NCBI GenBank assembly: GCA_038323465.1
Contig: JBBQGX010000003.1
Coordinates: 1 to 34,779, forward strand
DNA from: Minisyncoccia bacterium
Lineage (GTDB): Bacteria > Patescibacteriota > Minisyncoccia > Phycocordibacterales > UBA9973
Direction of reading: 5' to 3'
DNA length: 34,779 nucleotides
The position numbers were made by a program, and so were the translations under genes. Position 1 is the first letter of the stretch. Every line of letters begins with the position of its first letter. Below are positions 1,856 through 9,692 of the stretch, piece after piece. Under the pieces are notes generated by a model, which was not told the DNA's origin, searched no databases, and saw nothing but the letters and a program-made list of their open reading frames with translations.

Positions 1856-2278
1856 TTATTTTCTCCCAGTACTTCCAAACCCTCCCTCCCCCCTATCTGA
1901 TTCACTCAAACTATCAGTTTCCTCAATTTCCGCAATAGCTACTGGAAAAATAACAATTTGAGCAACTTTATCTCCCTCTTCTACAGTATAGGGTTCACTG
2001 CCAAGATTTACAAGGTGCGTATTGTATTCACCCCTATACCCAGCATCAAATACGCCCCCCATAGAACTAAGCCCTGCTTTTGAAATACTACTTTTGTCTT
2101 TTACAATAGCAGCATACCCTACTGGGAATTCCATAGCAAAACCATGCCAAAAGAAACGATGATCCCCTGGTGCGAGTGTATAAGTCTCCATAGAATACAC
2201 ATCCATACCAACATCACCAATATGGTGATACTTTGGTAACTTTGCTCCTTCTTTTAATTTTTTAATTTTGATTAACAT
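1856..2278 (-). CDS. dut: dUTP diphosphatase (trimeric dUTPase)
   Basis: 140 aa; GDVGMDV, KSS, GVFDAGYRGE, DKVAQIV and C-terminal RGEGGFGSTG motifs. Confidence 0.96.
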   Translation of the reverse strand: MLIKIKKLKEGAKLPKYHHIGDVGMDVYSMETYTLAPGDHRFFWHGFAMEFPVGYAAIVKDKSSISKAGLSSMGGVFDAGYRGEYNTHLVNLGSEPYTVEEGDKVAQIVIFPVAIAEIEETDSLSESDRGEGGFGSTGRK

Positions 2279-2281
2279 TTA

Positions 2282-2989
2282 TTATTTAACTATTTTTTTA
2301 ACTTTTTCATAAACCATATCGTGAATGGCTTCACGAGAAAGTATTCCACTTTTATCTGAGCAGTCAATTTTAGTCCAGCCTTTCTGTGTTTCGGCAAGCC
2401 AGAGAGCACTTTTGATAGAATTATTTAGATGTTCAGTATCACTCTCAGCGACATCTTTATTCTTCTTTAGATATTCTCTTTTCATCTGACTACTTTCTCT
2501 CTTTTCTAAAAGCTCTAGAACTATCTTAATGGGTAAACTTAAATATACAGTTAAATCAGGGCGAGGAATACCAAAGACTTCATATTCCATCTTGTTGAGC
2601 CACCCTATAAAACTATTACGTTTTTTTGTATTACTTATTTTTCCTCCCTGATGAATCTGATTCGCTGATACGTAACGATTGGCAATCACAACATAACCCT
2701 TCTTAAGCCATCCTTCTAATTCCTTACTAGATTCCCATCTATCTGCAGCATATAAAACAGATGCTATTTTTGGATGAACATGCAAGAAATTATAATATTG
2801 TTCTGAAAGACAATGACCGATAAATTCACCAAAAAAGTTTTTGTAATACTCTGGAAAATCAACAATCTTTACAGTATGACCCTCTTTTCTTAAATGCTTC
2901 ATCAACAAATCCACTTGGGTAGCTTTCCCACTGCCATCTGTTCCATCTATCACTATTAGTTTTCCTTTGTATTTTTTATTTTTTATCAT
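2282..2989 (-). CDS. tmk: Thymidylate kinase family protein
   Basis: P-loop IDGTDGSGKATQ, LYAADR, RYVSAN; start moved to ATG 2989 (MIKNKK), overlapping the NUDIX stop (track start 3019). Confidence 0.9.
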   Translation of the reverse strand: MIKNKKYKGKLIVIDGTDGSGKATQVDLLMKHLRKEGHTVKIVDFPEYYKNFFGEFIGHCLSEQYYNFLHVHPKIASVLYAADRWESSKELEGWLKKGYVVIANRYVSANQIHQGGKISNTKKRNSFIGWLNKMEYEVFGIPRPDLTVYLSLPIKIVLELLEKRESSQMKREYLKKNKDVAESDTEHLNNSIKSALWLAETQKGWTKIDCSDKSGILSREAIHDMVYEKVKKIVK

Positions 2990-3404
2990 AATAATTCTTG
3001 CCTGTTTTATATGAATCAATTGTTATTTTAGTTGGATAAAAAAGAGGAGAAGGAAGTTCTTCGAGAAAATACCAACTCCAATCGCCAATTCTTTCTTTTG
3101 GATCCGTTCTTTCGTTCCCTTCTTCCCAATCTGCTTTAAAAGAAATAAGAATATCGTGTCGATAAGAATATCGATCAATATTTGCGACACTTAAAAATTC
3201 AATATTTTTTATTTTTATTCCTGCTTCTTCTTCTGTTTCTCTTCTAATAGCACTTTTAAAACTTTCCATATAATCTATCCGACCACCAGGAAAAGAATAC
3301 TCTCCTGTGGCATGTTTGCCACTTCTTTTACCAAGAAGGACTTTTCCGTCTTTCCAAATCATCACTCCGACACATGGTTGTATCTCTTTACTTAAATCCG
3401 TCAT
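2976..3404 (-). CDS. NUDIX hydrolase (MutT/NUDT15-like nucleotide sanitiser)
   Basis: 142 aa; Nudix box GGRIDYMESFKSAIRRETEEEAGI; VLLGKR upstream. Confidence 0.9.
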   Translation of the reverse strand: MTDLSKEIQPCVGVMIWKDGKVLLGKRSGKHATGEYSFPGGRIDYMESFKSAIRRETEEEAGIKIKNIEFLSVANIDRYSYRHDILISFKADWEEGNERTDPKERIGDWSWYFLEELPSPLFYPTKITIDSYKTGKNYYDKK

Positions 3405-3407
3405 AAT

Positions 3408-3740
3408 CTAAAAATTATAAATTTTAATAAATCTTTTAATTACAATAAAACCATAACCCCATAGAAATGGTAGCCATAATGGCATTAAGCCAAACAAAGT
3501 ATTCCTTTCAAAAACTTCTACTTTAGTGCTAGTAAAAATAATCTCTGAAATTATCATGATAAAAAAACCTAAGAAAAATAATTTAATTTCTTTACTTTCT
3601 TTCTTGATAGAAAAAGAAATAAATATTATTAAAATATACAAAAATGTCAAAATATAATCATTTAAAATAAAAGGAATCAATCCAATCATCAAAACTAATG
3701 GGATTATATTTAGAAAAGTAATTTTTATCTTATTTCCCAT
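3408..3740 (-). CDS. Small integral membrane protein, unknown function
   Basis: 110 aa, about four hydrophobic segments, PLWLPFLWGY; 1-3 bp gaps to neighbours in the operon. Confidence 0.75.
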   Translation of the reverse strand: MGNKIKITFLNIIPLVLMIGLIPFILNDYILTFLYILIIFISFSIKKESKEIKLFFLGFFIMIISEIIFTSTKVEVFERNTLFGLMPLWLPFLWGYGFIVIKRFIKIYNF

Positions 3741-3741
3741 A

Positions 3742-4959
3742 TTATTTTCTTAAAATCTTATCCATCTTTATTGCGAGTTTGACCATATCAGTTTCCTTTT
3801 TACCACGAGTAGTTTCTGCGCAAGTTCCTAGACGGATTCCTGATGGATCCATAGGTCCTCGTGGGTCACCGGGGATAGTATTCATGTTTACGATGATGCC
3901 TGCTTTCTCCAAGCGCTCACTTGCATCTTTCCCAGGGATCCCCTTGCCTTCCATCCATGTATCCATAAGTATAAGATGTGAATCAGTACCACCTGAGATA
4001 ATATGCCAGCCGAGCTTTTGTAATTCTTTTGCTAAAACTTTCGCATTCTTCACAACTTGTTTTGCATACTTTTTAAATGCTGGGGTATCTGCTTCTTTTA
4101 AGGCGACAGCAACAGCCGCAATATTGTTCTCATGTGGACCACCGAAAAGTCCTGGAATAACCATCTTGTCTAATTTTTTATCAAAACCTCTCTCATCCTT
4201 TTTCACAAAAAGAATCGCTTGGCGTGGTCCACGAAGACTCTTGTGAGTCGTCGTCATGACAGAATCAGCATAAGGGAATGGTGATGGATAAGCTCCACCT
4301 GCTACAAGTCCCGCAAAATGTGACATGTCCACATGGAGAAGTGCTCCGCATGCGTCAGCTATTTCTCTGAATTTCTTGAAATCTACAATGCGAGGATATG
4401 CAGTGAATCCAGCTACGATAATATTGGGTTTCTCTTCTATTGCAAATTTCTTTAGTGCATCATAATCTATAACTTCAGTTTTAGGATCGAGTTCAAATTG
4501 TGCAGGCTTCCAAAGCTTCCCCGTCATAGATCCTGGATATCCGTGAGTAAGGTGACCACCTGCTGATAACTTCATACCCATTATTTTTCCACTGACTGGA
4601 ACTAAGGCAGAATACAAAGCAAAGTTTGCAGGAGAGCCTGAGAGAGGTTGGACGTTCACATGCCAAAAATCACCAGATTTTTGGTCCTGAACTTTTTTAG
4701 TGAAGGACTTATCACCACCTTTTAGTTTGAAAAGTTTCAAAGCTCTATCCATACAAAGTTGCTCCACTTTATCTACAACTTGATTTCCACCATAATATCT
4801 TCTTCCTGGATAACCTTCTGCATATTTATTTGTAAGCTTAGAACCAAGTGCACGAAGAACATCGTCAGAAACAATGTTCTCTGATGCTATTAAATTGATG
4901 ACACTCTTCTGTCTCTTCTCCTCTTCTTTAATTAATTTTTCTATTTGTTTGTCTTTCAT
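3742..4959 (-). CDS. glyA: Serine hydroxymethyltransferase
   Basis: LIASEN, NKYAEGYPGRRYYGG, GGHLTHG, PLP lysine TTHKSLRGPR, GGTDSH, SGIRLGT; probable start ATG 4959 (MKDKQ) rather than TTG 4986. Confidence 0.97.
   Translation of the reverse strand: MKDKQIEKLIKEEEKRQKSVINLIASENIVSDDVLRALGSKLTNKYAEGYPGRRYYGGNQVVDKVEQLCMDRALKLFKLKGGDKSFTKKVQDQKSGDFWHVNVQPLSGSPANFALYSALVPVSGKIMGMKLSAGGHLTHGYPGSMTGKLWKPAQFELDPKTEVIDYDALKKFAIEEKPNIIVAGFTAYPRIVDFKKFREIADACGALLHVDMSHFAGLVAGGAYPSPFPYADSVMTTTHKSLRGPRQAILFVKKDERGFDKKLDKMVIPGLFGGPHENNIAAVAVALKEADTPAFKKYAKQVVKNAKVLAKELQKLGWHIISGGTDSHLILMDTWMEGKGIPGKDASERLEKAGIIVNMNTIPGDPRGPMDPSGIRLGTCAETTRGKKETDMVKLAIKMDKILRK
4669..4717. repeat. 42-nt in-frame insertion in glyA: hairpin bracketed by a 7-bp direct repeat
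   Basis: atcacca at 4669-4675 and 4711-4717; between them gtcct-ga-act-ttttt-agt-ga-aggac. Confidence 0.6.
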
Positions 4960-5040
4960 TTGATTTCGCGAAATCATGTCGCGCAATCGTCCGCTAAGCG
5001 CGACGATAGATTAGATTATTAATAGGCCAATTTTACCACA
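4960..5040 (-). promoter_or_regulatory. glyA promoter (extended -10) and structured 5' leader
   Basis: TGgTAAAAT on minus at 5038-5030; leader holds perfect palindrome 4961-4976 and GC-rich stems at 4978-5007. Confidence 0.55.
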
Positions 5041-5052
5041 ATAGATAAAAAC

Positions 5053-5082
5053 AAAAAAGTCGACAATGTTGCCGACTTTTTT
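5053..5082 (-). terminator. Intrinsic terminator after the deaminase gene
   Basis: aaaaaagtcggcaa-ca-ttgtcgactttttt on minus; G-U pair favours the minus strand; directly after the stop codon. Confidence 0.85.
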
Positions 5083-5595
5083 TTATTCAAATTGATGTCG
5101 TATAATGTTACTTGGTTCATCTTTATTAAAGAGTATTTCACTTTTTTCTAAAAGATAAACATTGTTGATACCAACTGATATCATAGTATTCCAGCATGGT
5201 TCACAACACCACCAATGCCCCCAAAGATAAACATCTGCTCCTGTTAGATCATTTCCTTTACTAATAGCATCCTGGATAGCTTTTGCTTCACCGTGATTAT
5301 TTGGACTACATCCATCACAAAGTTCATATCCTACACCAGTAGGCATATTGTGTTCTTTTCTGTAACAACCATGTTTTTCATGATAATCACTTCCATTTGC
5401 GCCAATACCAATAATTTTATTATTTTTTACTATCACACTAGCATTAGGCATAGATTTATCTAAAGAATTTTCTTTAGCAAAATTTTTAGCTGTTTGCATA
5501 AACTCATTATCCTCTGTCACATAAAGAATAGTGCGTCCTTCTGGTAAATAAGGATAAACTACTTTATTACTTTCTGTTTTTGTTTCCTTTTCCAT
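5083..5595 (-). CDS. dCMP deaminase family zinc-dependent deaminase (ComEB/DCD-like)
   Basis: 170 aa; HGE catalytic motif, WWCCEPC (CxxC), GCYR...PTGVGYELC segment typical of dCMP deaminases. Confidence 0.85.
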   Translation of the reverse strand: MEKETKTESNKVVYPYLPEGRTILYVTEDNEFMQTAKNFAKENSLDKSMPNASVIVKNNKIIGIGANGSDYHEKHGCYRKEHNMPTGVGYELCDGCSPNNHGEAKAIQDAISKGNDLTGADVYLWGHWWCCEPCWNTMISVGINNVYLLEKSEILFNKDEPSNIIRHQFE

Positions 5596-5623
5596 AAATT
5601 GATTATAATGTATAATACATTAT
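5596..5623. promoter_or_regulatory. 28-bp divergent double promoter, both leaderless-type
   Basis: TATAAT 5611-5616 (+) 7 nt before thyA ATG; TATAAT 5607-5602 (-) 6 nt before deaminase ATG; 8-bp inverted repeat ataatgta-taa-tacattat. Confidence 0.7.
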
Positions 5624-6472
5624 ATGACAACTTTTGATATAATATACAAAAATTTAATAAAAAAAATAATGGAAGACGGGATAGAAGAATTAAACGAAAG
5701 AACTGGTCATAAAATAAAAATTTTACCAGGACTTACTTTCCAAACAGATATAGGAAAAGATGGTTTTCCTGTTTTAACTTTACGGAAAAATCCAATAAGG
5801 TCCCCTATCGCTGAACAAGTATGGTTTATCACTGGTGATAAAGATACAGAATTTTTAAGAAAATACACAAAAATGTGGGATGAGTTTATTGAGGAAGATG
5901 GAACAATTACTTCTGCTTACGGATATCGATGGCGACATCATTTTAAAAGAGACCAACTAGACCAATTAATAAAACATCTAACAGAAGAACCTCATTCAAG
6001 ACAAGGAGTAGTCATCACTTGGGACCCAAGTGATGATGGTTTGTATGGAAAAGGATTAAAAGCCACTTATAAAAAGAATGCTCCTTGCCCATTTGCGTTT
6101 ACTGTAAATATAATTGGGGGTAGACTTCATTTACATAACATAATCCGTTCAAATGATATGATGCTCGGATGTCCTTTTGATACTTTTGGGTTTAGTCTCC
6201 TTATGTGTACACTCGCTCAAAAACTTGGGGTTAAGCCAGGAATTTATACTCACACAATTTCAAACGCTCATATATACGATACACACTATGAAGGAGCTAT
6301 TGAATTAATAAAAAGAGAAAATGATCATCCAAATATATATCCAATACTACCAAATAATATTTACGATAGAGCAGAGAAAAAGGACGAGACATTGGTTGAT
6401 GAAATATTCCAATCTTTCAAACCATTTTATAACCCAAGTGAACCAATAGAAGGTCTTGATATAATAAAATAA
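5624..6472 (+). CDS. thyA: Thymidylate synthase family enzyme with Asp at the Asn177 position (possible dCMP methylase)
   Basis: 282 aa; ELNERTG, EQVWFITG, AYGYRWR, SRQ, catalytic PC (C155), RSND, NAHIY; D186 aligns with E. coli N177. Fold confident, substrate uncertain. Confidence 0.9.
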   Translation: MTTFDIIYKNLIKKIMEDGIEELNERTGHKIKILPGLTFQTDIGKDGFPVLTLRKNPIRSPIAEQVWFITGDKDTEFLRKYTKMWDEFIEEDGTITSAYGYRWRHHFKRDQLDQLIKHLTEEPHSRQGVVITWDPSDDGLYGKGLKATYKKNAPCPFAFTVNIIGGRLHLHNIIRSNDMMLGCPFDTFGFSLLMCTLAQKLGVKPGIYTHTISNAHIYDTHYEGAIELIKRENDHPNIYPILPNNIYDRAEKKDETLVDEIFQSFKPFYNPSEPIEGLDIIK

Positions 6473-6476
6473 CATT

Positions 6477-7001
6477 ATGATTCTATCTATAATTTCTGCT
6501 ATCGCAAATAATAATGAAATAGGAAGGAAGAATGAGCTTCTGTGGGATTTACCTATAGATATGAAGCATTTTAGAGAGACAACTTCAGGTCATCCTATCA
6601 TAATGGGTCAGCGTACATACGAGTCTCTTGGAACTGATTCTAATGGTTTGCCAGGGAAACCACTCCCAAACAGGAGAAACATAGTTCTTACCCTTGATAA
6701 AGATTTCAAAAGAGAGGGTATTGAAATATATTACTCAATCGAGGATTTAGAAAAAGTGCTAAGTGAAACAATGCAAGAAAATGAAGAGGCTTTTATCATT
6801 GGAGGAGGAATGATATATAAACTCTTTATAGATAAAGCAGACAAACTTTACATCACACATGTCAACGCAGAATTCGGAGATGCTGATACACTCTTCCCTG
6901 TTATAGATAAAGATAGATGGAAAGTAATATCTGAAGATAAACATGAAAAAGACGAAAAAAATATTTATGATTGCAATTTTGTAATTTATGAAAAAATATA
7001 A
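6477..7001 (+). CDS. folA: Dihydrofolate reductase
   Basis: 174 aa; IG.KNELLW.LP.DMKHF, IMGQRTYES, PLPNRRNIVLT, IIGGG, DADTLFP; 4 bp after thyA. Confidence 0.96.
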   Translation: MILSIISAIANNNEIGRKNELLWDLPIDMKHFRETTSGHPIIMGQRTYESLGTDSNGLPGKPLPNRRNIVLTLDKDFKREGIEIYYSIEDLEKVLSETMQENEEAFIIGGGMIYKLFIDKADKLYITHVNAEFGDADTLFPVIDKDRWKVISEDKHEKDEKNIYDCNFVIYEKI

Positions 7002-7038
7002 AAAAATCCCCGCTAATTTCATTAGCGGGGATTTTTTT
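7000..7038. terminator. Bidirectional intrinsic terminator between convergent folA and MazG-like gene
   Basis: Perfect 18-bp inverted repeat aaaaaaatccccgctaat-ttc-attagcggggattttttt. Confidence 0.92.
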
Positions 7039-7366
7039 ATGGATCTATATCTGTTTTTTCTCTTATAAATACATCTTTACCGTCTGGGGATTTTGATTTT
7101 ATATATTTACGATTTTTATTCTTTTCTATTTTTTCAACTAATTCTTTTTCTAAATCATAACCGAGAATTTCACACATTCCAAGTATAAATATTGCAACAT
7201 CAGCAAATTCTTCAGCCACACCATCCTGACTTTTACTGAACTTAGAATAAGCCTCTGACAGCTCTTCATGGGCACGACAAAATTCTACTGCAACATCAGT
7301 AGTATTGAAACCTTTCTCTAGCTTATTTCTCATTACTTCCTTTTGTAATTCTTTAAGATCTATCAT
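7037..7366 (-). CDS. MazG-like all-alpha NTP pyrophosphatase (DCTPP1/RS21-C6-like size)
   Basis: 109 aa; EELSE...EEFADV acidic metal-binding motif, KIEKNKNRKY tail; TATAAT (7378-7373) 6 nt before ATG. Confidence 0.85.
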   Translation of the reverse strand: MIDLKELQKEVMRNKLEKGFNTTDVAVEFCRAHEELSEAYSKFSKSQDGVAEEFADVAIFILGMCEILGYDLEKELVEKIEKNKNRKYIKSKSPDGKDVFIREKTDIDP

Positions 7367-7405: not shown

Positions 7406-8020
7406 TTATCTGAGAATGAAAAAACCCAATATCATCGCTACAAAGTTTAGGATAGTATGAGCGACAGATACCAGAGGTAGATTTTTATATTGATAATACA
7501 TCCATGCAAAACCTACCCCTGCGATAAACGTCATCGGCAATACAAAGATAGAGTTTAAATATATAACATGCATCATCGCAAAGACGAGAGCGTTTAGAGT
7601 TATTATGAAAATAGGACTCTTAAATGCACATGTAAGCATATTCATCAAAACTCCACGAAATATAATTTCTTGCAAAATACTAAGAGGTATAAAAAGCAAC
7701 AGAAAACGTATATTGTCATCCCATTCTAAAAAAGGATTATGAGGCACAACTTGGGCAAGCCAAATAAGAAAAAAAACTCCACCAACAGTAAAGAGTGAGT
7801 ATGGAATTATATCTTTTAAGAAATCTCTAGTAATTCCAATGTCAGAATGAGTCCACTTTGCATGTTTAATAATTCCAAGTAACATCATAGCCACACCAAG
7901 CAACATCATAAAACGAAAGTTGCCTGGTAAAACTTTAAAATATAACAATAGGGTTGGAATAATAAACAAATATAATATTTGAAGGAGAACAATCTCTTTT
8001 TGCATCTTTGTATTATCCAT
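7406..8020 (-). CDS. CPBP family intramembrane glutamic endopeptidase (Abi/CAAX protease-like)
   Basis: 204 aa, multi-TM; QEIIFRG, FAMMH, AHTILN motifs. Confidence 0.88.
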   Translation of the reverse strand: MDNTKMQKEIVLLQILYLFIIPTLLLYFKVLPGNFRFMMLLGVAMMLLGIIKHAKWTHSDIGITRDFLKDIIPYSLFTVGGVFFLIWLAQVVPHNPFLEWDDNIRFLLLFIPLSILQEIIFRGVLMNMLTCAFKSPIFIITLNALVFAMMHVIYLNSIFVLPMTFIAGVGFAWMYYQYKNLPLVSVAHTILNFVAMILGFFILR

Positions 8021-8042
8021 GATTCTATTATACTATAGAGAT
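8021..8042. promoter_or_regulatory. 22-bp divergent double promoter with overlapping -10 boxes
   Basis: TATAAT (-) 8032-8027, 6 nt before CPBP ATG; TACTAT (+) 8031-8036, 6 nt before ATG 8043. Confidence 0.6.
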
Positions 8043-9692
8043 ATGATTAAACTCAAATATATAATAATTCTTTTAATCGCTCTTATCGGAATTAATCAAG
8101 CAGAAGCGTTGGACATTCAATATGGAAGTCTGAAAAGTTATAGTGGGTCAAATGTTTTAATAGAATATTATGGCCTCGGAAATAAAAACAATTATCTTTG
8201 TAATATTTCAAATTTCAAATGCTCATCAACAAAAAAGACAATTTTGGGTAAATCATCAAACCCACCTATATTAAAAAATTCAATTAAACAAGAATTAAAA
8301 GACAAAGGGGCTAGACATGAAACTTTATCAAAGTCAGGGAATTGGCTAGCTTATTATATTCCCGCTTCTTCTCCTCTTAACATTCGAACTTATGTTATAA
8401 AGAACACAAAAACTAACGATAATTATATACTATCAAGCAGTGTCTCATATTGGGATTTGGTTGACGAGCAAATAAAGATATTTGAATTTTCATCAGATGA
8501 AAAATCTTTATATTATTTAGATGACAAGGACGGCTTGATGTCGATTTATAAATCTAATTTAAAATCACTCAAGGATGGAATTTTTGAAAATACTAAAATT
8601 CAAACCACTGCATTTCATATAAATTATTTTATTATTTATGATCCCACAAATATATTTTATGTTGGTAATACAAAAGAAAATCCCTACAAATGGACAATAC
8701 GCTCTCTCGATCTAAAAACTGGAAAAGAAAAACTTATAGAATCAAATGTCTCTTACCTCGATAGGATAACAAAGATAGGAACATCTCTGATTTTTATTCG
8801 AATGCAAGAAAAAGGTTATGGCCCAGAAGTATATAATGTTAAAACAAAAAAAATCGGCTATTTTAAAGTTCCCAAAATTAATACAAGAATAACACTAAAG
8901 AATGAAGAACCAGTAAAAATCGGAAACCAAAATGCTATTGTGATGACTCCTCCTTCATATGATTCCAAAAAAACTTATCCAGTAGTAATATGGCTTCATG
9001 GTGGACCACTTCGTCAAACAAGTTTAGGTTATCATCCATATCATAGTTATGGAATATATGATTCGATTCTAAAACTATTACAAAAAAATAATGTCATCGT
9101 TCTTAAATTAGATTATAGAGGAAGTTTTGGAGCTGGGCGCACCTATTCAGAAGCAATAAAGGGCTCTGTTGGTAAAGGCGATACTGAAGATGTAATGGAA
9201 GCTGTTACTTATATACGTAAACAATATAGCGTTAGTGATATTTACCTAGCTGGAAATAGTTATGGTGGATATATGTCACTCCGTGCTGTAGTAGAGCATC
9301 CTGATACATTCAAAGGAATATTTTCTATTAATGGTGTAACTGATTGGGAAAGTTTGCTTGTGAAAATGCAGACCTCAATATTTAATACTCAGTTTTATGG
9401 ATTACCAAACGAAAGTAATAGAAATCTTTACGACCAAGCTTCTATTATTAAAAAAATAGAAAATTTAGGGAATCAAAGGATCGAAATAATCCAGGGGGAA
9501 GCTGATAGAACTATTCCCGCTTGGCAGGCAACTTTACTTTACGATAAATTGAAAGAAGCAGGGAAAAATGTAAATATTACAACCTATAAAGGAGAAGATC
9601 ATGTATTCAAAGAAAAAAAGAATATTGGAGATATATGCGTCAGACTTTTTGGCTTAATCGGAATCCCAGTAGATAAAGAATGTACCAAATAA
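8043..9692 (+). CDS. Secreted S9 family (prolyl oligopeptidase/DPP-like) serine peptidase
   Basis: Signal peptide ending AEA; WLHGGP, DYRGS.G.G, nucleophile GNSYGG, GEADRTI, EDHVF; start moved to 8043 (track 8019). Confidence 0.9.
   Translation: MIKLKYIIILLIALIGINQAEALDIQYGSLKSYSGSNVLIEYYGLGNKNNYLCNISNFKCSSTKKTILGKSSNPPILKNSIKQELKDKGARHETLSKSGNWLAYYIPASSPLNIRTYVIKNTKTNDNYILSSSVSYWDLVDEQIKIFEFSSDEKSLYYLDDKDGLMSIYKSNLKSLKDGIFENTKIQTTAFHINYFIIYDPTNIFYVGNTKENPYKWTIRSLDLKTGKEKLIESNVSYLDRITKIGTSLIFIRMQEKGYGPEVYNVKTKKIGYFKVPKINTRITLKNEEPVKIGNQNAIVMTPPSYDSKKTYPVVIWLHGGPLRQTSLGYHPYHSYGIYDSILKLLQKNNVIVLKLDYRGSFGAGRTYSEAIKGSVGKGDTEDVMEAVTYIRKQYSVSDIYLAGNSYGGYMSLRAVVEHPDTFKGIFSINGVTDWESLLVKMQTSIFNTQFYGLPNESNRNLYDQASIIKKIENLGNQRIEIIQGEADRTIPAWQATLLYDKLKEAGKNVNITTYKGEDHVFKEKKNIGDICVRLFGLIGIPVDKECTK

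Follow-up and report, generated by a model that had tools for sequence, protein, structure and literature searches.

A candidate methylate-first thymidylate module on the chromosome of a Minisyncoccia bacterium

In cells, thymidylate synthesis is known to start from deoxyuridine monophosphate (dUMP) and to use either ThyA or ThyX. A different chemistry is known from phage Xp12, where a deoxycytidine monophosphate (dCMP) methylase, a 5-methylcytosine-nucleotide deaminase and a dihydrofolate reductase (DHFR) act together and thymine nucleotides arise by deamination of a 5-methylcytosine nucleotide. Here we describe a gene cluster at positions 1856-7366 of a 34,779-nucleotide stretch of DNA (the window throughout this text; GenBank assembly GCA_038323465.1, contig JBBQGX010000003.1) from a Minisyncoccia bacterium, in which a ThyA homologue, a zinc deaminase and folA suggest that the same logic operates in a cell. 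The cluster is probably a housekeeping thymidylate module run in reverse order, from deoxycytidine triphosphate (dCTP) through dCMP and 5-methyl-dCMP to thymidine monophosphate (dTMP). The chemistry itself is not new; the new element would be its use for cellular housekeeping by a sole synthase, for which the literature searched holds no description. That literature reports no cellular methylate-first route, nor Asp-type ThyA or 5-methylcytosine (5mC) in Patescibacteria, and one Patescibacteria paper that names thyA handles it as an ordinary gene.

The modules of Xp12 and PaMx74 share with this locus Asp 177, Pro 147 (E. coli numbering), a KN(V/A)PCP motif and the C-terminal tail of the ThyA homologue, and in all of them the ThyA homologue, a gene labelled 'dCMP deaminase' and DHFR lie side by side. 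Here, by contrast, the module lies in the core chromosome of a cell, its ThyA is the sole thymidylate synthase and belongs to a separate, cell-associated subclade with Gln or His at position 127, the deaminase comes from another clade without BLAST similarity, and tmk, glyA and dut are linked. The pyrophosphatase of PaMx74 is PRA-PH, whereas here it is PF12643 or DCD-like, and Xp12 replaces all of its cytosine with 5mC, which is not expected in Patescibacteria. Phage T4 provides a second parallel, in that gp42 is an Asp-type ThyA homologue acting on dCMP, as is predicted here, and is fed by a dCTP pyrophosphatase, gp56; gp42 differs in having Asp145 three residues before the catalytic cysteine (Cys-minus-3), no tail, release of tetrahydrofolate (THF) and no DHFR, where the present locus has Asn, a tail and folA. 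The deaminases mSCD-B5 and XP-12 DCTD resemble the present one in being PF00383/MafB19-type enzymes beside an Asp-type ThyA and proposed makers of thymine nucleotides, but those enzymes need a triphosphate, 5mC selectivity among them is polyphyletic, and the Patescibacteria clade is found at 2 IMG/VR loci. Mammalian cells, finally, convert 5-methyl-dCMP to dTMP with DCTD, preventing its phosphorylation and incorporation, alongside DCTPP1, an all-alpha pyrophosphatase that acts on dCTP and 5-methyl-dCTP; there the reaction is a salvage or cleaning side reaction, whereas in the present module it would serve as the principal de novo pathway.

The source genome (753 kb, 88% complete) belongs to Patescibacteria of the Nomurabacteria/Paceibacteria type. 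The gene map was built from the open reading frame (ORF) list with Pfam and NCBIfam profile scans, and its central features are as follows.

5083-5595, minus strand: cytidine deaminase (CDA)-fold zinc deaminase of the 'GHWWCCxPCW' clade (PF00383, E 1.6e-12)
5596-5623, no strand assigned: divergent control region of 28 bp with promoter-like consensus matches
5624-6472, plus strand: ThyA homologue, Asp-type (PF00303, E 1.7e-53)
6477-7001, plus strand: folA, dihydrofolate reductase (PF00186, E 4e-54)

A first-pass annotation of this DNA had described an Asp-type thyA set head-to-head with the deaminase gene across 28 bp, and both observations are borne out: the gap between the two start codons is 5596-5623, and D186 of the ThyA homologue occupies the position of E. 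coli Asn177. HMMER alignment against solved thymidylate synthases places 'lgcpfDtfgf' opposite 'lgvpfNias', and a MAFFT alignment with E. coli ThyA concurs. Relative to E. coli the protein further has P156 for H147, F88 for W83, Q127 for R127, N152 for L143 and I174 for Q165, the last making position 165 hydrophobic. The catalytic cysteine is present (C155, E. coli C146), and Glu58, Arg166, Ser167, Asp169, His207 and Tyr209 (E. coli numbering) of the ThyA fold are retained with it. With Asn177 and His147 replaced and an NF002497 score of 146.6 against a cut-off of 327, the protein does not fit a canonical dUMP-dependent ThyA, and the sole NCBIfam ThyA model that it passes is the broad TIGR03284 (115 versus 108); it nevertheless appears in the source genome annotation plainly as 'thymidylate synthase'. 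What it does fit is the Xp12 type, with Asp at 177, Pro at 147 and Asn at Cys-minus-3 (KNxPCP). The motif around the catalytic cysteine reads KNAPCP in the window protein, KNVPCP in Xp12, RNVPCP in PaMx74, SDFMC in T4 and ALAPCH in E. coli, and the C-terminal tail ends in a PxYNP-like motif that aligns with the tail of Xp12. Positions 177 and 147 are the best separators of enzymes on modified-cytosine contigs from those on unmodified contigs (PMC8670742), and that paper cites a switch to dCMP by the enzymes of E. coli and L. casei once Asn177 is changed to Asp. In vivo, 5-methyldeoxycytidine (5mdC) is made by the Xp12 enzyme and by 5 of 7 metagenomic Asp-type enzymes (bioRxiv 10.1101/2024.12.05.627091).

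This signature extends well beyond the window. In a census of 81 ThyA copies, comprising the window copy and those of 80 related genome loci, D177 and F83 are found in all 81 and P147 in nearly all. A search of 1.8 billion representatives recovered a D177/P147/F83-type signature in about 125 of the best 150 matches, and the Asn-type sequences among those 150 retain W83, H147 and N177, with Gln or Met at position 165. These alignments mark the Asp signature as a family trait and not a private mutation of the window protein. Of the 3905 phage records that match the ThyA family, those of Xp12-type phages (e.g. Xp12, Mallos and PaMx74) score best, with about 185 bits and 33-38% identity across 96% of the protein. 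A maximum-likelihood tree gathers the Asp-type enzymes into one clade (SH-aLRT 100) and implies a single Asn/Asp change. Within that clade, a Patescibacteria subclade (89) and a phage subclade that includes Xp12 (96) are sisters, the former not being nested in the latter, and T4 gp42 also belongs to the Asp-type clade, on a long branch. We infer from the sequence signature that the ThyA homologue is a dCMP C5-methyltransferase, predicted to convert dCMP and methylenetetrahydrofolate (CH2-THF) to 5-methyl-dCMP and dihydrofolate (DHF). DHF is the expected product because folA starts 4 bp past the thyA stop codon. folA adjoins thyA in at least 58 of the 81 loci, DHFR lies in the same cassette as Asp-ThyA in both Xp12 and PaMx74, and glyA upstream of the deaminase is kept in close relatives; FolA is predicted to recycle DHF and GlyA to supply CH2-THF for ThyA.

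The deaminase partner is as distinctive as the synthase. No other PF00383 gene occurs in the source genome, and the protein carries both zinc motifs of the CDA fold, HxE (H101-G-E103) and CxxC (C131-E-P-C134), which are invariant in its clade, as are C77, R79, Y90, C93, H127, W129 and W135. The residue ahead of C131 is Cys or Ala, not Pro, and the clade is recognisable by the resulting GHWW(C/A)CxPCW block and by the extra C77/C93 pair. Where DCTD enzymes have the allosteric G(Y/W)N(A/G) motif the window protein has GANG, lacking the aromatic residue, and with 27.5 bits on the ComEB model TIGR02571, whose cut-off is 219, the protein fails as a ComEB equivalog. The AlphaFold (AF2) model has a pLDDT of 85, and its top structural matches are the dCMP deaminases of T4, PBCV-1, S-TIM5, S. 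mutans and human, at TM-scores of merely 0.44-0.50. An equivalent of Xp12 Trp128, which contacts the 5-methyl group, was sought by alignment and none was located, the region aligning unreliably. On the strength of its sequence and genomic company, the enzyme is predicted to act on a 5-methyl-deoxycytidine nucleotide.

Several further observations concern this clade. It is nearly confined to cells, with 5 weak matches only in the phage collection, and of the two IMG/VR loci one is a true phage contig (L110, IMGVR_UViG_3300028274_000021), where a 43%-identical deaminase (5001-5495) has no ThyA within 5 kb and the contig carries a Mu-like portal, DUF3310, an N6/N4 methylase and a SAM synthetase. 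In Uhrbacteria-type loci the deaminase is fused to a C-terminal PF05014 domain of the nucleoside 2-deoxyribosyltransferase family (L051:8949-9872, L052:7381-8292, L063:8012-8896 and L080:11105-12040), a family that includes deoxynucleoside monophosphate-binding enzymes of the DNPH1/Rcl type. An identity as the tRNA deaminase TadA was considered and rejected, because the genome has no tRNA-Arg(ACG), its tRNA-Arg anticodons being GCG and TCG, because the clade is confined to Asp-ThyA genomes, and because the TadA model matches only at E 0.007; no TadA-like gene was found in the source genome. ARAGORN also predicted tRNA-Ser(ACU) at C27:2196-2285, tRNA-Gly(ACC) at C50:1632-1702 and tRNA-Ile(UAU) at C27:5607-5681, two of which have unusual A34 anticodons.

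Whether this ThyA is the only thymidylate synthase of its host was addressed in the source genome and, because that genome is incomplete, in its relatives. The source genome holds one PF00303 gene in total, and ThyX, thymidine kinase and dCTP deaminase were all sought in it, at 88% completeness, and not found; only dut cross-matches the dCTP deaminase model. The wider survey covered an even sample of 401 Patescibacteria genomes, with membership of the Asp clade set at 43% identity or more and E below 1e-50, and presence of the deaminase clade at E of at most 1e-15. A ThyA-family gene occurs in 178 of the 401 genomes and an Asp-type ThyA in 19, the source genome included, which is about 5% of the sample and spans at least a dozen families. 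Each of these 19 genomes has a single ThyA match, and ThyX is missing from 17 of the 18 besides the source genome, among them a one-contig genome scored 100% complete.

The same survey tied the two enzymes together. The deaminase clade is present in 14 of the 19 Asp-type genomes and in 1 of the 382 others (Fisher p 7e-21), two further Asp-type genomes having weaker deaminase matches, one of which adjoins thyA. In 74 of the 81 loci thyA has a deaminase homologue no more than about 6 kb away. Two distinct gene orders occur: in Nomurabacteria the deaminase gene diverges from thyA at about -530 bp, and in Uhr-, Falkow-, Kuenen- and Taylorbacteria it follows thyA on the same strand. Since the pair is kept together in both orders, the arrangement is not due to chance, and the co-occurrence and synteny proposed as a check in the first-pass annotation are thus found. 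For comparison, 17 low-identity ThyA genes were sampled from other Patescibacteria, and all 17 are Asn-type (W83 or N83, H147, Q165, N177); 9 of these 17 loci adjoin an ordinary ComEB-like dCMP deaminase (TGYNG...HAExNA...PCxxC) in the same dut/tmk/folA/glyA context. Judged by these signatures, the phylum holds two versions of one operon, between which ThyA and the deaminase appear to have been exchanged together. A swapped reaction order predicts such a joint exchange, which a deaminase still making dUMP would not readily account for. The canonical ThyA plus ComEB/DCTD route of Asn-type Patescibacteria, Gram-positives and eukaryotes has the same enzyme superfamilies, the same folA/glyA/tmk/dut partners and the same net conversion of dCMP to dTMP; what differs here is the predicted order of the steps, D177/P147/F83 in place of N177/H147/W83, and GHWWCCxPCW with GANG in place of the canonical xxPCxxC with its aromatic allosteric motif.

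A deaminase-ThyA(Asp) fusion (P0137) on a phage-like contig links the two activities independently: positions 6001-7302 of a 58-kb Logan contig (L086, SRR28892722) encode a 433-aa protein that joins a canonical-type dCMP deaminase to an Asp-type ThyA, next to a DCD-family gene and a ribonucleotide reductase.

The remaining genes of the cluster, which the first-pass annotation had listed as dut, tmk, glyA, a NUDIX and a MazG-like gene around the central pair, are all recovered by the ORF list and the profile scans, together with a small membrane gene and a terminator.

1856-2278, minus strand: dut, trimeric dUTPase (PF00692; TIGR00576 116 bits versus cut-off 102.6)
2282-3019, minus strand: tmk, dTMP kinase (PF02223)
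2976-3404, minus strand: NUDIX hydrolase (PF00293, E 1e-20)
3408-3740, minus strand: predicted membrane ORF of 110 aa (no family at its cut-off)
3742-4986, minus strand: glyA, serine hydroxymethyltransferase (PF00464, E 1e-146)
6998-7040, no strand assigned: shared bidirectional terminator hairpin of folA and the MazG-like gene (20-pair stem, A and T runs on the flanks)
7037-7366, minus strand: MazG-like all-alpha nucleoside triphosphate (NTP) pyrophosphatase (PF12643, 28 bits versus cut-off 27)

The MazG-like gene fills a slot that two families appear to share. Its EExxE...EExxD motif is intact (HEELSE...AEEFAD), the phrog_3301 pyrophosphatase family matches at E 1e-12, and among solved sequences 1vmg and 4qgp come closest. 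A MazG-like gene is present in 40 of the 81 loci and a DCD-like gene in 25 others, the two occurring together in none (p 3e-10). The DCD-like protein (PF22769, about 215-240 aa) is found in Asp-ThyA modules outside Nomurabacteria (loci L046-L081, e.g. L072:7370-8029, and L105:2583-3236). A role for it as a true dCTP deaminase was rejected, because all 27 copies (27/27) have Pro for the catalytic Glu, ITLELxN becoming LxxPIxN, with RSSxxRxG retained; several of the genomes that carry it also have a separate, shorter dUTPase-family match. The mutual exclusion points to non-orthologous displacement of an NTP pyrophosphatase that would supply dCMP from dCTP or remove 5-methyl-dCTP, and the MazG-like protein is a candidate for either task or both. 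Phage cassettes offer a precedent, with a PRA-PH/MazG-type enzyme beside Asp-ThyA (PaMx74) and a PRA-PH-ThyA(Asp) fusion (P0196).

The other neighbours fit a nucleotide-pool setting to varying degrees. The best solved relative of Tmk is the M. tuberculosis thymidylate kinase (TMPK; 1g3u), although TIGR00041 falls slightly short (77 versus a cut-off of 83). Its residues aligned to F70, R74 and N100 of 1g3u, the thymine contacts of that enzyme, are Y, R and N. The listed TTG start gives tmk a 44-bp overlap with the NUDIX gene (2976-3019); the true start is more likely the ATG at 2989, which shortly precedes the P-loop. The NUDIX protein falls far under the cut-off of every NCBIfam equivalog that it matches, and outside the closest relatives its gene is not conserved; the protein may have a pool-sanitising role. 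The 110-aa membrane ORF has a homologue at only one other locus and probably stands outside the pathway. In the divergent control region, the deaminase has a promoter-like site on the minus strand (TTGTCA-17-TATAAT, 5630 to 5602, 11 of 12 consensus matches) and thyA one on the plus strand (TTTCCA-16-TATAAT, 5589-5616). The two overlap in and around the 28-bp gap (5589-5630), the -35 element of the deaminase lying inside the first thyA codons, an arrangement that suggests leaderless or near-leaderless transcripts for both genes. The hairpin at 6998-7040 could end the transcripts of both folA and the MazG-like gene. All cluster genes are single-copy in the source genome, the module is chromosomal and lies between argS and glyA (in genome G274 the flank is rpsB), GC content is even along the window, and no phage genes were found around the module in the window or at the G274 locus.

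Taken through the module, the pathway would run as follows. dCMP would be supplied probably by cleavage of dCTP by the MazG-like pyrophosphatase, or by the Glu-less DCD-like protein in other lineages. The Asp-type ThyA would then use CH2-THF to methylate dCMP at C5, giving 5-methyl-dCMP and DHF, and FolA and GlyA would restore CH2-THF. The clade-specific zinc deaminase would convert the methylated cytosine nucleotide to a thymine nucleotide, most likely 5-methyl-dCMP to dTMP, which the canonical Tmk would phosphorylate, while Dut and perhaps the NUDIX protein would merely police nucleotide pools. The premises that the first-pass annotation had treated as established hold, including the action of DCTD on 5-methyl-dCMP (PMC12088426), and its central proposal, methylation before deamination, is supported by the Asp-clade ThyA signature, by sole-synthase status and by co-occurrence with the deaminase.

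Within such a methylate-first scheme, deamination at the monophosphate seems to us roughly twice as probable as at the triphosphate, and chromosomal cytosine would stay unmodified. A canonical dTMP kinase is linked to the module and would serve no purpose if 5-methyl-dCTP were deaminated directly to dTTP, and DCTD-type enzymes generally accept 5-methyl-dCMP (PMC12088426). The Uhrbacteria deaminase-PF05014 fusion weakly favours a monophosphate route with ordinary cytosine, and C5-DNA methyltransferases, which would find nothing to methylate in a genome with 5mC for all cytosine, favour ordinary DNA cytosine: intact copies are found in 6 of the 19 Asp-type genomes and in 93 of the 382 others (p 0.58), which is no depletion. 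None of these four observations is decisive. McrBC (PF10117) was dropped as a marker against a 5mC genome, since it is present in merely 2 of the 401 Patescibacteria and its absence is uninformative. Genome G147 combines a full-length C5-DNA methyltransferase, encoded about 500 bp downstream of its Asp-type thyA, with a deaminase copy that contains an in-frame TAA (G147:C14:32800-35107 and C14:46885-47319).

A number of observations weigh against a methylate-first housekeeping module. The source genome is just 88% complete, and the substrates of the Patescibacteria ThyA and deaminase clades, like that of the MazG-like enzyme, are predicted from sequence. Two of the 7 Asp-type phage enzymes gave no detectable 5mdC, and the only characterised partner deaminases, XP-12 DCTD and mSCD-B5, act on 5-methyl-dCTP and not on the monophosphate (bioRxiv 10.1101/2024.12.05.627091; PMC12088426). 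The Patescibacteria enzymes also depart from Xp12, with Gln or His at the Arg127 position of ThyA and a deaminase for which BLAST finds no similarity to that of Xp12 (E 0.28), while the full set of pyrophosphatase, Asp-ThyA, deaminase and DHFR is that of phages with 5mC for all cytosine. If ThyA rejects dUMP, moreover, no enzyme is evident that would consume the dUMP that Dut produces. Individual genomes break the pattern as well: G370, the sole genome with ThyX among the 18 Asp-type genomes besides the source genome, has a Tmk-ThyX-ThyX fusion adjoining the module, G274 has Asp-ThyA, folA and the DCD-like gene without a member of the deaminase clade, and G383 has the deaminase (57% identity) without any ThyA-family match. 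The fusion in G370 is 786 aa long (ORF 5182-7542 of L105, G370:C1:196000-206000) and stands beside Asp-ThyA, the deaminase, folA and the DCD-like gene. In G274 (L104, C3:37000-50000) the next gene, ORF 7995-9050, encodes a very divergent ThyA-like protein of 351 aa (PF00303, E 1e-4), for which pairwise comparison gave no informative signal. The G383 deaminase (L103, C1:152000-164000, ORF 5644-6357) has about 65 extra N-terminal residues and neighbours without a Pfam match, in a genome that is a single contig.

These points bear on several other accounts of the cluster. An Xp12-like cell would phosphorylate 5-methyl-dCMP, deplete dCTP with the pyrophosphatase, use 5-methyl-dCTP as a principal substrate of its polymerase, carry 5mC at much or all of its chromosomal cytosine, and draw dTTP from 5-methyl-dCTP through the deaminase. 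We regard this as unlikely, even though the parts equal those of the Xp12 and PaMx74 cassettes (the pyrophosphatase in PaMx74, with a HAD hydrolase in its place in Xp12), the characterised phage deaminases use a triphosphate and the source genome has no C5-DNA methyltransferase. The undepleted C5-DNA methyltransferases of the other Asp-type genomes would lack a substrate in a fully substituted genome, Tmk keeps its thymine-contact residues and the cluster holds no further kinase, the deaminase clade is both unlike the Xp12 enzyme by BLAST and nearly absent from viral contigs, and 5mC-substituted Patescibacteria DNA goes unreported in the literature searched. The competing model of the first-pass annotation, a cellular genome with 5mC acquired during replication, is weakened by the first two of these points yet stands as a rival. 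That 5-methyl-dCMP is phosphorylated and incorporated as well, giving a free-living cellular lineage an Xp12-like chromosome with a large share of its cytosine as 5mC in every context and thymidine nucleotides drawn from the same pool, appears to us a little less likely again. The conventional order is also improbable, in which a divergent dCMP deaminase makes dUMP and ThyA methylates dUMP in vivo despite its Asp, in an otherwise ordinary operon. The dut/tmk/folA/glyA context like that of Asn-type Patescibacteria operons, the presence of dut in or beside the module, dCMP deaminases as the nearest structural neighbours and the retention of all other catalytic residues in ThyA are what that order would lead one to expect; the Asn177-to-Asp switch of the E. 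coli and L. casei enzymes is not, nor is the use of cytosine nucleotides by all natural Asp-type enzymes assayed in the papers cited. The conventional order would also have to accommodate a fixed multi-residue signature common to Xp12 instead of a single substitution, and it leaves the joint replacement of the ordinary deaminase and ThyA unexplained.

Two further accounts would take the cluster out of thymidylate synthesis or out of host metabolism. A hydroxymethylase identity for the ThyA homologue is very unlikely, and so is a role in making a hypermodified base or a nucleoside natural product in the manner of MilA or T4 gp42. Hydroxymethylases are marked by Asp or Glu at Cys-minus-3, by Ser/Thr-x-Tyr and by the lack of a C-terminal tail, T4 D145N makes no 5-hydroxymethyl-dCMP, and the release of THF by these enzymes means that DHFR is not needed (PMC6400193). 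The window protein shares the Asp-type clade with T4 gp42, if on a long branch of the latter, and its Ser97-x-Tyr99 resembles the Ser-x-Tyr half of the signature; that is the only element to match, N152 being neither Asp nor Glu and a tail like that of thymidylate synthase being present with DHFR adjoining. The cell would in addition be left with no source of dTMP, having no other thymidylate synthase, and no glycosyl- or carbamoyl-transferase is found near the module. A prophage or mobile island serving phage DNA modification is just as hard to credit: phages contribute many members of the Asp-type clade and the patchy spread over Patescibacteria families suggests horizontal transfer, but no phage genes flank the module, its neighbours being argS and glyA in the window and rpsB in G274. 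No other thymidylate synthase is present in these genomes, the Patescibacteria sequences make up a separate subclade whose sister is the phage subclade, and GC content in the window is uniform.

If the methylate-first reading is true, thousands of database entries named 'thymidylate synthase' are wrong on substrate, and the cellular deaminase clade may be 5-methylcytosine-selective, a property wanted in enzymes for methylation sequencing. The cluster also raises the question of whether any cellular genome contains replication-derived 5-methylcytosine. It would constitute a natural case of two consecutive enzymes switching specificity jointly, and it would change pathway reconstruction for ultra-small bacteria, in that several Patescibacteria lineages (about 5% of the sampled genomes) would use as their sole route to thymidylate a third arrangement so far known from phages only.

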